Assembly (NCBI GenBank): GCA_963729525.1
Contig: CAVSOB010000010.1
Location: 162,860-226,859 of the forward strand
Origin: an uncultured Acidobacteriota bacterium
GTDB lineage: Bacteria; Acidobacteriota; Terriglobia; Acidiferrales; UBA7541
Reading direction: 5' to 3'
DNA length: 64,000 nucleotides
Shown: piece after piece, positions 38,180 through 42,648 of the stretch
How positions within the stretch are numbered: position 1 is the first letter of the stretch
Layout: the number at the start of each line of letters is the position of its first letter
Made by a program: the position numbers and the translations under genes
The notes under the pieces: model-generated
Seen by the model: only the letters and a program-made list of their open reading frames with translations
The model's database searches: none
Told to the model about the DNA's origin: nothing

Positions 38180-39220
38180 ATGACCCGACTTCTGTTTGCG
38201 CTGATGGTTCTACAAGGCCTCGCAGCCACGATTGCAGGGCAGGACACGCCCGGCACTTCCACCATGTTCGATGCCGGCCGCGCGTTTCTTGCGACGCTGA
38301 ATCCGGCGCAGAAGTCAAAAGCCGTCTTCCCATTCAATTCCGATGAGAGATTTCGCTGGTTTTACACCCCGGTACCCAGGAAGGGCATTCCCCTCAAAGA
38401 ATTGAACGCGACGCAGCAGAAGGCGGCAATGGCTCTGCTGCGTGCCGGCCTCAGCGAGCAAGGCTACACGAAGGCGGAAACGATCCGAAAGCTTGAAGAC
38501 GTGCTGCGCGAACTGGAACAGGGCAATGGTCCGACCCGCGATCCTGACCTGTACTTCTTTACCTTTTTCGGAGAGCCCTCCGACACCGGCGCCTGGGGCT
38601 GGCGCTACGAAGGGCATCACTGTTCGCAGAACTGGACGATCCTCAATGGCAAGTCGATCGGCAGCAGCCCGCAGTTTTTTGGCGCGAATCCCGCCGAGGT
38701 GCGCGAAGGGCCCATGAAAGGGACGCGCGTACTCAAAGCCGAGGAGGATCTGGGTCGCTCGCTGGCGAAATCTTTCACCGCCGAGCAACGCGCAGAAGCG
38801 TTCCTGAGTTCTTCCGCGCCGAACGATATTGTCACCTCAAACCAACGCAACGCCGCCATCCGGGAAGACAAAGGCATCGCCTACAGCAAGCTCAGCAAAG
38901 ATCAGCAGGGCGCACTCCTGGCCCTGATCGAGGAATACCTGGGGGCGCAACCCCACGCGCAGGCACGCGAGCGGCTCGAGAAAATCCGCCAGGCGGGCTT
39001 CGACCACATCAAATTCGCTTGGATGGGCGGCTTGGAGAAAGGCGAAGGCCACTATTACCGCGTGCAAGGCAGCACTTTTTTGATCGAGTACGACAACACC
39101 CAGGACAACGCCAATCACATTCACTGCGTCTGGCGCGACTTCAATGGCGACTGGGGCCAAGACCTGCTAGCAGAACACTACCGGAATTCAACACATCATC
39201 AGCACGCCTTTCACGAATAG
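38180..39220 (+). CDS. DUF3500-domain protein, secreted
   Basis: Motifs WGWRYEGHHCSQNWTI and HYYRVQGSTFLIEYDNTQDNANHIHCVWRD are DUF3500-like by memory. Confidence 0.75.
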   Translation: MTRLLFALMVLQGLAATIAGQDTPGTSTMFDAGRAFLATLNPAQKSKAVFPFNSDERFRWFYTPVPRKGIPLKELNATQQKAAMALLRAGLSEQGYTKAETIRKLEDVLRELEQGNGPTRDPDLYFFTFFGEPSDTGAWGWRYEGHHCSQNWTILNGKSIGSSPQFFGANPAEVREGPMKGTRVLKAEEDLGRSLAKSFTAEQRAEAFLSSSAPNDIVTSNQRNAAIREDKGIAYSKLSKDQQGALLALIEEYLGAQPHAQARERLEKIRQAGFDHIKFAWMGGLEKGEGHYYRVQGSTFLIEYDNTQDNANHIHCVWRDFNGDWGQDLLAEHYRNSTHHQHAFHE

Positions 39221-39396
39221 GTATCGATAATCCCTTTCCCTGACAACCGAGCGCATTGACGCGTTTATCGAACGCTCGCCAGGGATAACACGCAGAATTA
39301 ATACGTTCAAATCACAAGGCAGGGAGAAGAAAGGAGAGAGGCGCTCGGTAACCTCACAAGCGCCTCCTCTACTGCGTCAACGTAAACCGTACCTCA

Positions 39397-39411
39397 CTGG
39401 ATCACCTCCTT
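39397..39411 (+). other. Exact 15-nt copy of the 16S rRNA 3' terminus (CTGGATCACCTCCTT); equivalently a perfect extended SD on the minus strand
   Basis: Read directly from the sequence. The upstream 25 nt (gtcaacgtaaaccgtacctca) loosely resemble the region before 16S helix 45. No other rRNA-like sequence is nearby. Confidence 0.7.
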
Positions 39412-39633
39412 CTCGGCAGGAACGCCGATGTCGACAAGAATGTCGAATGATCTGAGTATAACCCGGGGTCGGAGAGATGTCGGAAAGTAATTCTTAAGGC
39501 TTGCGTTTAACGCGCGAAAGCCAGTTACCGATAAATCGCTGGATCTGAGAAACCAACTCGCAGGGCACTCGGATGGCGCGAAGGGCGGTTCTCTTTCCGT
39601 CTCGCAGACCGCCTTTTGGCAACATTTAGTTAC

Positions 39634-39662
39634 TTGACAACTAGTTACCAGTATATTATCAT
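39634..39662 (+). promoter_or_regulatory. Near-consensus sigma70-type promoter in an ORF-free region
   Basis: TTGACA (39634-39639), 17 nt, then TATCAT (39657-39662). The -35 is flanked by direct TAGTTAC repeats at 39627-39633 and 39642-39648. Confidence 0.5.
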
Positions 39663-39668
39663 GAGTCG

Positions 39669-39857
39669 TGATTGTTATTCAAAACTCGGCCCGTCGCGCG
39701 CAGTTGGACGGAGGTCGCTCCTCGCGCCTCCTAACCCCCCGATTTGCACAGCTCGATGCCAAATTTCTAATCGCGAATCTGGAATTAGAGATCCGCGCAA
39801 CTCCCACAAGACAAACGAGGCCCTTGAAGTCTAATCGCAAATATTTTGCGGTTTTTT
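39669..39857 (+). ncRNA. Candidate ~190-nt small RNA (promoter- and terminator-delimited)
   Basis: It starts about 7 nt after the -10 and ends at an intrinsic terminator. It contains the hairpin GGAGGuCGC-UCCUC-GCGCCUCC (39710-39731) followed by a C6 run. No credible ORF or RBS is present. Confidence 0.35.
39833..39857 (+). terminator. Rho-independent terminator
   Basis: AATCGCAAA-tat-TTTGCGGTT, 9 bp including one G.U, running into a T6 tract (39852-39857). Confidence 0.5.
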
Positions 39858-40161
39858 CCCCTGACGTACGAAGGATTCATCCCGCTCCGATGCCCTGCCC
39901 CGCTACCGGTTCTCGGACTGCCCGCCCTCTCTGCTCTAATAGCAACAGTCGAATTACAGAAAAAGAGTTAAGTCGCAGAAAAGAAAGAAGAAAGCAAAAT
40001 TCTAATAGCAACAAAATCGCGGTTTCCGGCAACTACGCCACGCAGGCTTTTTCCCTACACAGATCCGCAGCGGCGCATCGACGTCAGATGATTTCGGCCA
40101 GCGCGCCATTATCCTCGGCGCCCAACCTCGCTATAATAGACTTCCCTATGCGAGGACGTTC

Positions 40162-42648
40162 ATGAGCCGGCAGCAAGCAGTCATCGAATCCGCTGCGCCA
40201 ACCGAGACCCAGGCGCGCGTCTGGGATGCGTTCCGCCGCTGGGGCTATCTTCAGGCGAATCTTGACCCTTTGGGTGATCTAAAGCCTGTCAATCTTCCCG
40301 AGCTCGCCATTTCAGGCCCGGATGCCGAAGCAGCGCGCAAGATCTATTGCGGCACAATCGGCGTCGAGTTTATGCACATCCCCGATCTTGAACGTCGCCG
40401 CTGGATCGAAGAACGCATGGAATCGGGGGCGCCCGCGTCAACACCGGACCAGAAAGCGATTCTCGATCGCCTCGTTCGCGCGGAAATTTTCGAACAGGTT
40501 CTGCAGACACGCTATCTCGGCACGAAACGGTATTCACTCGAAGGCGAAGCGGCGCTTCTGCCGCTCCTTGACGCGATCCTCAATGCGGCGTCAGGGCATG
40601 ACGCGCAGCAGGCCGTCCTGGCGATGAGCCATCGCGGCCGGCTCAACGTAATGGTGCACATCGTCGGCCGTCCGGCTGCAGAAGTTTTCGCGAAATTCGA
40701 AGATGTAGACCCGCGCAGCGTTCTCGGTGGCGGCGACGTGAAATATCACATCGGCGCAACGGGCGAATTTCGCGCAGCAAATGGCCGGAACATCGGAATT
40801 CATCTGGCATCGAATCCGAGCCACCTCGAAGCGGTAGATCCGGTGGCGGTCGGCCGCGCGCGCGCCAAGCAAACGCGTATCGGTAAAGATGGCGCGCAGG
40901 CGATCGTTCCGGTCATCATGCACGGCGACGCTGCATTCGCCGGGCAGGGAATCTGGGCCGAAACGCTCAACATGGCCGGCGTCGAAGGTTTCAACGTGGG
41001 CGGCTCGGTTCACATCATCGTCAACAATCTGATTGGCTTCACCACCGTGCCGCGCGAATCGCATTCCTCGCGTTTTTCATCGGATCTCAGCAAACGCCTG
41101 CCGATTCCGATTTTCCACGTAAATGCGGAAGACCCGGAGGCGGTGGCGCGCGTCGGTCGCATCGCGCTCGACTATCGCTATGCATTTGCCTCCCCGGTCG
41201 TCGTGGATCTGATCGGCTACCGCAAACATGGCCACAGCGAAGTGGACGATCCGACGATCACCCAGCCGCTGGGCTACAAGAAAATTCAGGCGCATCAGCC
41301 GCTCTGGCAAATTTACGCGCAAAAAATCGGTGTCGATGCCGAACCGATTGTCGAAAAAGTGCGCCAGGAACTTGACGCGGCGCAAAAAGAAGCCGAAGAA
41401 CTCGAGAAGAATCCGCCGATGCGCAAATTACCCGCGTATTGGGATACCTATCGCGGCGGACGTTACAACCCAACGCTCGAAGTCGACACGGGAGTTTCCG
41501 CGGCGGAATTGACCGCGACCGGCGAAGCGCTCGCAAGCTATCCGGATGGATTTCACATCCATCCGAAAGTTAAAAAGCTGCTCGAACAGCGTCTCGAAAT
41601 GGCCCGCGGCAAGCGTCCGCTCGATTTCGGTATGGCGGAAGCCCTGGCGTTCGGAACGCTACTGAAGCAGGGAACTCCGGTGCGCCTCAGCGGACAGGAC
41701 AGCAAGCGCGGTACCTTCAACCAGCGCCATGCGGCCCTGATCGATATCGAAAACGAACAAGAATTTATTCCCCTTCAGCACCTGGCGCCCGGCCAGGCGT
41801 TTTTTGAAGCCTACAATTCAACTTTGTCCGAAGCCTCCGTACTCGGCTTCGAATACGGCTTCAGTCGCGACTATCCCGAAGCGCTGGTCTTATGGGAAGC
41901 GCAGTTCGGCGATTTCGCGAACGGCGCGCAGATCATCATCGATCAGTTCATCGCGGCGGGTGAAGACAAGTGGAATCTGCTCTCGGGTGTTGTGCTGCTG
42001 CTGCCGCACGGATACGAAGGGCAGGGTCCGGAACATTCCAGCGCGCGCATCGAAAGATTTCTGCAGCTCGCCGCGCGCGACAATATTCAAATCTGTCAGC
42101 CGTCCACGGCCGCGCAATATTTTCATCTGCTGCGCCGGCAAGCGATGCGCGCGTGGCGCAAGCCGCTCGTCATCTTCACACCCAAGAGCATGTTGCGCAC
42201 GCCCGCTTCGTCATCTTCGCTGGCGGAGCTTTCAGCAGCGCGGTTCCGTCCCGTGATTCCCGACAGCGGAAATGGAAGCGCGACGCGCGTCCTGCTGTGC
42301 ACAGGAAAAATCGGCCATGAACTCGAAGCGGAAAGAACACGCCGGAAGGACGACTCGACTGCGATCGTTTTTCTCGAGCAGCTCTACCCGTTCCCCGAGG
42401 CCGAGCTAGCCGCCGAAATGGACAGGCACGCAAACGCCCGCGAATTCGTCTGGGCGCAGGAAGAACCGGCTAACATGGGCGCGCTGGCGTTCATGCTGCC
42501 GCGCCTCGAACGTCTCGCGCGTGGCCGCTCGGTGCGCTCGGTAAAACGTTCTGCGAGCGCGAGCCCTGCGACTGGCTCGCACAAAGCGCACGAGATGGAA
42601 CAAAGAACTCTTCTCACCGTCGCGTTCGCGAATCCCACAAGCAAATAA
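40162..42648 (+). CDS. sucA: 2-oxoglutarate dehydrogenase E1 component
   Basis: 828-aa full-length E1o-like sequence (RWGYLQANLDPLG, HRGRLNV, GDAAFAGQG, LLLPHGYEGQGPEHSS). GAGGA RBS, with a TATAAT at 40132-40137. Confidence 0.93.
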   Translation: MSRQQAVIESAAPTETQARVWDAFRRWGYLQANLDPLGDLKPVNLPELAISGPDAEAARKIYCGTIGVEFMHIPDLERRRWIEERMESGAPASTPDQKAILDRLVRAEIFEQVLQTRYLGTKRYSLEGEAALLPLLDAILNAASGHDAQQAVLAMSHRGRLNVMVHIVGRPAAEVFAKFEDVDPRSVLGGGDVKYHIGATGEFRAANGRNIGIHLASNPSHLEAVDPVAVGRARAKQTRIGKDGAQAIVPVIMHGDAAFAGQGIWAETLNMAGVEGFNVGGSVHIIVNNLIGFTTVPRESHSSRFSSDLSKRLPIPIFHVNAEDPEAVARVGRIALDYRYAFASPVVVDLIGYRKHGHSEVDDPTITQPLGYKKIQAHQPLWQIYAQKIGVDAEPIVEKVRQELDAAQKEAEELEKNPPMRKLPAYWDTYRGGRYNPTLEVDTGVSAAELTATGEALASYPDGFHIHPKVKKLLEQRLEMARGKRPLDFGMAEALAFGTLLKQGTPVRLSGQDSKRGTFNQRHAALIDIENEQEFIPLQHLAPGQAFFEAYNSTLSEASVLGFEYGFSRDYPEALVLWEAQFGDFANGAQIIIDQFIAAGEDKWNLLSGVVLLLPHGYEGQGPEHSSARIERFLQLAARDNIQICQPSTAAQYFHLLRRQAMRAWRKPLVIFTPKSMLRTPASSSSLAELSAARFRPVIPDSGNGSATRVLLCTGKIGHELEAERTRRKDDSTAIVFLEQLYPFPEAELAAEMDRHANAREFVWAQEEPANMGALAFMLPRLERLARGRSVRSVKRSASASPATGSHKAHEMEQRTLLTVAFANPTSK

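Follow-up and report, generated by a model that had tools for sequence, protein, structure and literature searches.

The seven-codon gene mccA, known from the microcin C (McC) operons of E. coli and H. pylori, is usually cited among the shortest genes. Its short transcript of 105–107 nt combines seven codons with a very efficient Shine-Dalgarno (SD) sequence and an intrinsic terminator, and is described as ribosome-bound and "exceptionally stable" (PMC4231749). The mccA open reading frame (ORF) is translated about 71 times per ribosome before dissociation, a figure that drops to 30 and 6 when the ORF has 11 and 15 codons, and ORFs of 2–8 codons make up the range reported for re-initiation without leaving the mRNA (PMC6495379). 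The present work concerns an element of about 125 nt on the minus strand of a 64-kb window (the whole stretch of DNA that was analyzed) within a 5.1-Mb, 10-contig Acidobacteriota genome. Comparative sequence analysis identifies this element as a conserved minigene RNA, an orphan with a maximal ribosome-binding site. Its kind, the short translated RNA or minigene, is already known; a description of the element itself was not found in the literature.

By analogy the closest known working model is the mccA short transcript. The mccA transcript and the one predicted for the element have about 105–125 nt each, with a very efficient SD, six or seven codons and a terminator a few nucleotides past the stop, and in both the length of the ORF is conserved and the sequence of the peptide is not. 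The element differs from mccA in having six codons rather than seven, in starting with GUG or CUG but never AUG, in the invariance and length (13–15 nt) of its SD, and in carrying a C-terminal Asn in only 22% of the copies. It also lacks mccB or any other conserved downstream gene and stands as an orphan in an ever-different context. No recurring neighbor family indicates a downstream mccB (ThiF/E1-like), and the ORFs that follow Asn-ending copies are mutually unrelated, none being ThiF-like as judged by eye. Membership of the microcin C precursors was rejected on the C-terminal Asn (36 of 167 copies) and on the mccB linkage.

The six-codon mini-ORF in the LEE4 espADB leader of enterohemorrhagic E. 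coli (EHEC) and the STAB-SD of Bacillus thuringiensis cry3A resemble the proposed working of the element in that a strong SD, accompanied by a tiny ORF or not, binds a 30S subunit or ribosome that shields the RNA from RNases, the peptide being irrelevant, according to those parts of PMC8708949 and PMC4113751 that deal with them. Both act in cis ahead of long genes, which they protect, whereas the element has nothing downstream to protect. Toxic minigenes of the phage lambda bar type and ORFs with early AGA or AGG codons share with the element a very short ORF, a strong SD and a rare Arg codon adjacent to the start, and re-initiation without dissociation has been reported for them (PMC2490762). 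These known cases are accidental or experimental and come from cells limited in peptidyl-tRNA hydrolase (Pth), whereas the element, a gene of the chromosome, is subject to purifying selection across a family of bacteria. In its working mode the element would stand nearest to the mccA short transcript, the LEE4 mini-ORF and STAB-SD, and as an orphan it is unlike all three.

The six-codon frame and the unit that carries it

Conservation in related genomes, proposed as a check in the initial annotation of the window, was found on DNA searches, which recovered some 100–200 nt, with the 15 nt at 39397–39411 in the middle, at 71–93% identity while the remaining intergenic region was unconserved. A covariance model built from the family alignment was run on 301 genomes sampled from the order Candidatus Acidoferrales and scored 100–120 bits in 185 of them, mostly in single copy. 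All 185 fall in one family and in 10 of the 34 genera of the sample, and the neighboring genes are always different. In a sample of 401 genomes from the phylum, matches came only from the element's own family, all others reaching at most 28 bits and being unrelated on inspection. Exact-pattern scans gave at least 120 matches in species genomes and at least 120 in soil metagenome contigs of at least 1 kb; the bearers are genomes of uncultured soil Acidobacteria. Two copies are decayed. In one (L218, G051:C3:879625–879744) the SD is mutated to AAGAAAGTGATCC, the start is ATG and the terminator is weakened, and in the other (L220, G287:C65:48254–48325) the SD core is deleted.

The evidence for translation comes from a frame that the initial annotation had read correctly, GTG AGG TAC GGT TTA CGT TGA at 39397–39377 of the minus strand, with a gap of 7 nt between GGAGG and GTG. 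Codons were counted in 167 distinct copies, extracted with a pattern that required AGG. The family pattern is GUG/CUG AGG UAY nnn nnn nnU stop, and the start codon lies 6–7 nt after GGAGG in all copies. This start is GTG in 104, CTG in 60 and TTG in 3 copies, and never ATG. The second codon is AGG in 167 of 167, as it is in every copy found without the AGG requirement. At the third codon TAC (150 copies) alternates with TAT (14 copies), a synonymous change for Tyr, and 3 copies have another triplet. Codons 4–6 vary freely, with 13–19 different triplets each, and codon 6 ends in U in 163 of 167 copies regardless of the amino acid. The commonest endings are CGT for Arg (85 of 167) and AAT for Asn (36 of 167), the peptide of the window ending in Arg.

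Codon 7 is a stop in 166 of the 167 copies (TGA 130, TAA 21, TAG 15), and the one copy with a sense codon there is degenerate. When the stop columns were masked for tree building, the resulting tree required a minimum of 22 changes at the stop codon, 21 of them from stop to stop. Because only one of the nine single-base neighbors of TGA is a stop, such a ratio requires selection for termination, and the preservation of a stop through 21 of at least 22 changes indicates that the frame is read by ribosomes. A covarying partner for the stop bases was not found among the other RNA columns, and conservation of the stop codon as a pairing partner was rejected. Indels are absent from the ORF in the alignment but present in the linker that follows it. 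The comparison of copies thus shows a genuine coding frame, with purifying selection on start, length and stop. A second mini-ORF proposed for 39357–39307 is present in the window sequence, opening with a GUG of the terminator loop that is conserved and follows a second GGAGG. Across the family, however, its length varies between 9 and more than 60 codons, and indels in the loop change its frame. Since neither length nor frame is conserved, this second mini-ORF was rejected as a coding unit.

Ahead of the six codons lies an SD of exceptional length, below called a hyper-SD. Its 13 nt, AAGGAGGUGAUCC, are kept in essentially all intact copies, and the SD–start region is the most conserved single-stranded segment of the RNA, its sole perfect partner in the genome being the 16S tail. 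The predicted duplex energy with this tail is −32 kcal/mol for the element and −27 kcal/mol for the CUG clade, compared to −10 kcal/mol for a plain GGAGG. Upstream of the starts of about 1,400 long ORFs of the genome (starts crudely called), complementarity to the 16S tail has a maximum of 9 nt and is mostly 4–6 nt. No other hyper-SD in the genome was found that combines at least 10 nt with a minigene. The codon that follows the start, AGG, makes up 4.7% of the Arg codons in the genome.

On the minus strand, in the direction of transcription and in window coordinates, the unit is laid out as follows.

39478..39483, minus strand: −35-like hexamer CCGACA, from a promoter scan (CCGACA, 17 nt, TATACT)
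39455..39460, minus strand: −10 hexamer TATACT, from the promoter scan and its fixed distance to the SD
39431..39446, minus strand: 5′ hairpin P0 (UCGACA-UUCU-UGUCGA), in clade A only, from sequence and fold
39414..39427, minus strand: 5′ hairpin P1 (CGGCG-UUCC-UGCCG), ending 2–3 nt ahead of the SD
39397..39411, minus strand: hyper-SD AAGGAGGUGAUCC(AG), 15 nt here, a perfect complement of the organism's own 16S 3′ tail
39377..39397, minus strand: six-codon ORF GUG AGG UAC GGU UUA CGU UGA, predicted to encode fMet-Arg-Tyr-Gly-Leu-Arg, from stop conservation
39368..39376, minus strand: linker from stop to terminator, variable, about 9–14 nt across the family, with indels common in the alignment
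39337..39367, minus strand: terminator hairpin GGAGGCGCUUG, loop UGAGGUUAC, CGAGCGCCUCU, an 11-bp stem with covariation
39322..39336, minus strand: U/C-rich terminator tail CUCCUUUCUUCUCCC, a terminator-like site
39275..39321, minus strand: moderately conserved stretch 3′ of the terminator, clade-A consensus ..CCCGCCUGUnCGAAUUCCCnGUGAUUUGACGAAUU.. / ..CCCGCCTGTnCGAATTCCCnGTGATTTGACGAATT..

The promoter is of the sigma-70 type. In clade A, to which the window belongs, 83 of 106 copies have the −10 box 48–50 nt ahead of the SD start, the −35 position is likewise conserved relative to the SD, and the commonest −35-like hexamer is CTGACA (33 of 106). Clade B and other clades have TATAAT near −30 and at times TTGACG at −35. 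Transcription is predicted to start near 39448, and the 3′ end of the RNA would be expected inside the tail at 39322–39336; in homologs this tail is mostly CUCUUUUUU.

Pairing in P0 is kept in homologs via two-sided changes (GCGAC...GUCGC) and U–G wobble. The five pairs of P1 are formed in 98.7% of cells and three of them changed on both sides, as in the replacement of G–C by A–U in 18 of 60 sequences. The hairpin of GAGGCGCT and AGCGCCTC described in the initial annotation is real and forms part of the GC-rich 11-bp terminator stem (39367–39337), after which comes the U/C-rich tail. In this stem 95–97% of cells are paired and six pairs changed on both sides. Its 5′ arm contains the second GGAGG, and the loop region keeps the motif UGUGA (at least 90% conserved), the rest of the loop varying in sequence and length in the alignment. 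Taken together, P1 and the terminator are 97% paired in 60 diverse sequences, with compensatory changes at nine pairs, and these pairing and covariation values were reached by none of 500 shuffles. Beyond the terminator, column identity remains at 50–77% over about 50–60 nt in 82 clade-A copies despite differing flanking genes; the conserved unit therefore measures about 210 bp, longer than the predicted RNA.

The fold of the window's own RNA predicts that the SD is masked by the CU-rich 3′ tail, in the manner of an mccA-like switch. Such masking is present in the minimum-free-energy fold of 12 of 161 family members, and a switch based on competition of the upstream SD region for the terminator's CU-rich strand is not a family feature and is not claimed.

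Many of the helix pairs are G–U, which on the plus strand would give A–C mismatches, the promoter is at a fixed distance on the minus strand, and only on that strand does the U-tract stand 3′ of the hairpin. For these reasons the minus strand is the RNA strand. Comparison of the copies shows this strand, the anatomy of the RNA and its separate promoter and terminator, and the G–U pairs, promoter position and U-tract polarity contradict the suggestion that CCUC motifs on the plus strand are functional. The related suggestion of an RNA that mimics or titrates the SD/anti-SD interaction was right in one part, as the minus-strand RNA has an extreme SD that pairs with the 16S tail, and wrong in the other, as it is not an anti-SD mimic.

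What the RNA may do

The constraints found in the family concern the mechanics of translation while the C-terminal half of the peptide is unconstrained. For this reason we favor, tentatively and with close to even confidence, a free-standing minigene RNA of the minus strand whose selected output is ribosome engagement. A transcript of about 125 nt, running from its own promoter to its own terminator, would carry hairpins at each end. The perfect SD of 13–15 nt would pair with the 16S 3′ tail in a helix of unusual length and thereby capture a ribosome, which would initiate at the non-AUG codon, GUG or CUG, 6–7 nt downstream, read six codons and terminate. After the stop the ribosome would most likely cycle on the RNA without leaving it, since an ORF of six codons lies inside the range of 2–8 codons reported for reiterative minigenes (PMC6495379) and the SD of 13–15 nt that precedes it is so strong. 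This cycling would protect the RNA and hold it in a ribosome-bound state. Selection would be directed at the parts of the cycle, namely the SD, the context of the start, AGG as a rare codon, the U that precedes the stop, the length of the ORF and the stop itself, and residues 4–6 of the peptide would be outside its reach. The useful output would be ribosome engagement, either holding or gauging part of the ribosome pool or of a rare-tRNA pool, and the hexapeptide fMet-Arg-Tyr-x-x-x may be only a by-product, or a second output.

Several points weigh against ribosome engagement as the selected output. CUG is a poor initiator in model bacteria, and it is the start codon in 36% of the copies here. 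Over-long SDs are known mainly from model systems, so the behavior proposed for Acidobacteria is extrapolated. The conserved Met-Arg-Tyr and the synonymous change of the Tyr codon would fit a functional peptide equally well. The invariance of AGG could instead reflect an RNA-level motif, because GAGGU is itself SD-like. The proposed cycle accounts neither for the UGUGA motif of the loop nor for the conservation beyond the terminator. Finally, certain genomes of the same genus do not have the element and two copies are decayed, from which it follows that the element is dispensable rather than essential; evidently, the gene can be lost.

Ribosome engagement could also be taken further, to a dedicated "ribosome-parking" gene. 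This would be an orphan RNA that locks the 16S tail and idles the ribosome on a six-codon track, buffering or gauging free ribosomes or the rare tRNA-Arg(CCU) in slow-growing soil Acidobacteria, and it would belong to a wider, unrecognized class of hyper-SD micro-genes that includes Rfam CC2171 and other small-ORF units of the Acidobacteriota. We regard this extension as conceivable but doubtful.

The hexapeptide itself may be the selected product, the hyper-SD and the short ORF serving to maximize its yield as is the case for MccA, the precursor of microcin C. An unlinked modifying enzyme might use fMet-Arg-Tyr-x-x-x as its substrate, or the peptide might act in the ribosome tunnel like the erythromycin-resistance pentapeptide encoded in 23S rRNA, over-production of whose minigene makes E. 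coli erythromycin-resistant according to the relevant part of PMC5179076. The strict conservation of ORF length and stop is in agreement with a selected peptide, as are the conserved Met-Arg-Tyr and its synonymous TAC/TAT change, and McC-type precursors also keep their length and not their sequence (PMC6495379). However, residues 4–6 are almost free, and codon 6 has a fixed U at its end irrespective of the residue. The Arg is always encoded by AGG and never by a synonymous codon, as expected if the constraint lies on the codon or its tRNA and not on the amino acid. The C-terminal Asn that McC-type chemistry requires occurs in only 36 of the 167 copies, and no biosynthetic or transport genes linked to the element were found. 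A selected hexapeptide thus appears unlikely, although well above negligible.

In another scenario the element is a base-pairing regulatory small RNA, with the terminator loop (UGUGA...) or the CU-rich 3′ part as effector, and the mini-ORF and hyper-SD only stabilize or gate the RNA like STAB-SD or the LEE4 six-codon mini-ORF. A free-standing unit from promoter to terminator with stable end hairpins would suit such an RNA, as would the conservation of at least 90% of UGUGA in the loop region. A ribosome or 30S subunit on a strong SD can also stabilize an RNA with no need for the peptide, as stated in the parts of PMC4113751 (STAB-SD) and PMC8708949 (LEE4) that describe these systems. We nevertheless find a base-pairing function distinctly unlikely. 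The SD–start region, and not the loop, is the best conserved single-stranded segment and has only the 16S tail as perfect partner, the loop outside UGUGA varies in sequence and length, a target was not identified, and mere stabilization needs no fixed ORF length.

A special case of the favored ribosome engagement would be a natural minigene of the toxic type, in which drop-off of peptidyl-tRNA would sequester the rare tRNA-Arg(CCU) or burden peptidyl-tRNA hydrolase, throttling translation of AGG-containing genes or growth. Codon 2 is invariantly AGG though this codon is rare, and rare AGA or AGG next to the start, like minigenes of 3–8 codons, are known to inhibit protein synthesis via a build-up of peptidyl-tRNA, the short ORFs being the strongest (PMC2490762). 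A strong SD raises minigene toxicity through re-initiation, in the part of PMC8708949 concerned with minigenes. Against this, the toxicity data come from Pth-limited E. coli systems, the most toxic minigenes have two codons and not the length conserved here, and UGA, the commonest stop in the family, is reported in that part of PMC8708949 to be less toxic than UAA. Toxicity as the selected effect is improbable.

Genomic surroundings and the likeness to 16S rRNA

A short ORF followed by a terminator is also the classical layout of an attenuator, and the element could be a cis-acting leader-peptide attenuator of a flanking gene, e.g., sucA or DUF3500. The surroundings make this very improbable. 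In the window the next gene in the direction of the element is a convergent DUF3500 gene, and sucA lies behind the element. Synteny upstream of sucA, which the initial annotation had proposed to examine, was not observed, as tblastn of the window neighbors found DUF3500 and SucA as flanks in no other genome. Clustering of 880 neighboring ORFs from 121 loci gave no common downstream family, the largest protein family being present in only 10 loci. This largest cluster resembles an FtsX/MacB-type ABC permease, and the recurring neighbor families resemble large paralogous families that are common in these genomes (ABC permeases, SDRs, kinases), both judged by eye. Downstream genes share the strand of the element at 53 loci and lie opposite to it at 59, and upstream genes are likewise divided about 50:50. 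With flanking genes that change from one genome to the next and are randomly oriented, the element is no leader. Of the earlier proposal of a ribosome-loading leader with mini-ORFs there remains the first mini-ORF, which is real and strongly selected, but neither the unconserved second one nor the leader.

Some other features were seen in this part of the window. On the plus strand at 39627–39700 there is a near-consensus promoter (TTGACA, 17 nt, TATCAT) with a palindrome, AACTAGTT, in its spacer and a conserved start ..ATGAGTCGTG...AAAACTCGG. This palindrome promoter occurs at three sites in the genome, including C8:9401–9456 and C5:1683030–1683089. It lies upstream of sucA in the window and in two relatives (L016, L021), another copy precedes an ORF that by eye resembles a 2-oxo-acid dehydrogenase E1, and these genes may have it in common as an operator or leader. 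The sequence GCGCCTCCT does recur at 39724–39732, as noted in the initial annotation; this is a 9-mer within a different element and is treated as a coincidence. Antisense within sucA, on the minus strand at 40609–40679, a weak match to the Guanidine-II riboswitch (19 bits against a gathering score of 32, E = 0.67) is most likely due to chance.

The initial annotation had described the locus from its plus strand, where CTGGATCACCTCCTT at 39397–39411 equals the 3′-terminal 15-mer of 16S rRNA. Both position and identity are correct, and so is the arithmetic of the accompanying estimate that a given 15-mer is expected by chance about 1e-4 times per 64 kb. The window contains no rRNA operon, as had also been stated; no family of Rfam 15 reaches its gathering score in it. 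The whole genome has two copies of CTGGATCACCTCCTT, one in the window and one that forms the genuine 16S 3′ end on another contig, and 12- and 13-mer versions have the same two genomic sites only, compared to 0.16–0.55 expected from base composition. A search of the genome with the small subunit (SSU) rRNA model gave one 16S gene, on a different contig from the window. The suggested alignment to the organism's own 16S 3′ end gave an identity of 15 nt with differing flanks on both sides, helix 45 upstream and the spacer downstream, and a 16S fragment or relic was rejected. The relic interpretation fails because the 16S likeness ends at 15 nt and the segment is a strongly conserved family in itself, and an assembly chimera with an rRNA operon, envisaged in the initial annotation, is ruled out by the 185 genomes that keep the element in non-rRNA contexts. 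A chance match, a decayed 16S fragment, such a chimera or an anti-SD mimic on the plus strand would be in line with the 15-nt identity to the 16S 3′ end but scarcely tenable against an identity that does not pass 15 nt, an element kept in 185 genomes in non-rRNA surroundings, and strand evidence in favor of the minus strand. Neither chance nor a 16S relic accounts for the 15-mer in the window, which in minus-strand reading is the SD of a self-contained unit some 125 nt long. In a different genome (G315, contig C1) four copies of AAGGAGGTGATCCGCG were seen, possibly belonging to 16S genes with a variant strand of helix 45 and not to minigenes.

Other hyper-SD sites and the meaning of the element

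Within 38500–40800 of the window the only Rfam match with E up to 10 is CC2171 (RF01867), at 23.4 bits and E = 0.025, compared to a gathering score of 75 for this model of 159 positions. CC2171 is a small RNA of Alphaproteobacteria with unknown function, seen on Northern blots in Caulobacter and Methylorubrum (bioRxiv 10.1101/2022.01.24.477521). Like the element it has an AAGGAGGUGAUCCAGUG module at its start, a terminator at its end and a conserved short ORF. It differs in that this ORF has 21–26 codons (MSHC...W...) instead of six, and in its phylum. The alignment to the model covers only the 5′ SD module and the terminator, 87 central positions being replaced by 10 nt. A plain terminator elsewhere in the genome outscores the element on this model with 30 bits, and membership was rejected, the second CC2171 match in the genome being a mere terminator. 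Since every maximal SD has to resemble the shared part, this part does not demonstrate common descent. In 118 alphaproteobacterial loci, CC2171 has a 17-nt perfect complement of the 16S tail and a conserved ORF of 21–26 codons, MSHC(H/L)xP...W..., which ends in TGA in 59, TAA in 35 and TAG in 24 loci. CC2171 is probably a small-protein mRNA.

Outside 16S genes, AAGGAGGTGATCC was found in 79 of the 401 Acidobacteriota genomes, compared to about 8 matches to a reversed control pattern, a difference of roughly tenfold. Some of these sites lie within genes, where they encode K-E-V-I, and some precede normal genes. Several others precede small ORFs of 14, 17–18, 22 or 28 codons (L489–L491, L465–L467), and in view of these sites hyper-SD micro-genes seem to be a recurrent theme.

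CC2171 is a validated "non-coding" small RNA of Rfam, and it shares with the element a ribosome-gripping head and a conserved ORF. Together with the roughly tenfold excess of 13-nt heads of this kind over the control in Acidobacteriota, this suggests a wider blind spot in annotation. Gene callers and small-RNA catalogues may systematically miss or mislabel ribosome-gripping micro-genes. With six codons, the element would rank among the shortest free-standing genes under demonstrable selection. It is tied to no biosynthetic operon, and the constraints that are visible in it are on ribosome binding, start and stop and not on the peptide made. Because the anti-SD is universal, E. coli and cell-free systems are both usable for experiments on the RNA. 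The element thus makes testable a long-discussed idea, according to which RNAs could serve cells to hold or sense ribosomes by way of the anti-SD tail.

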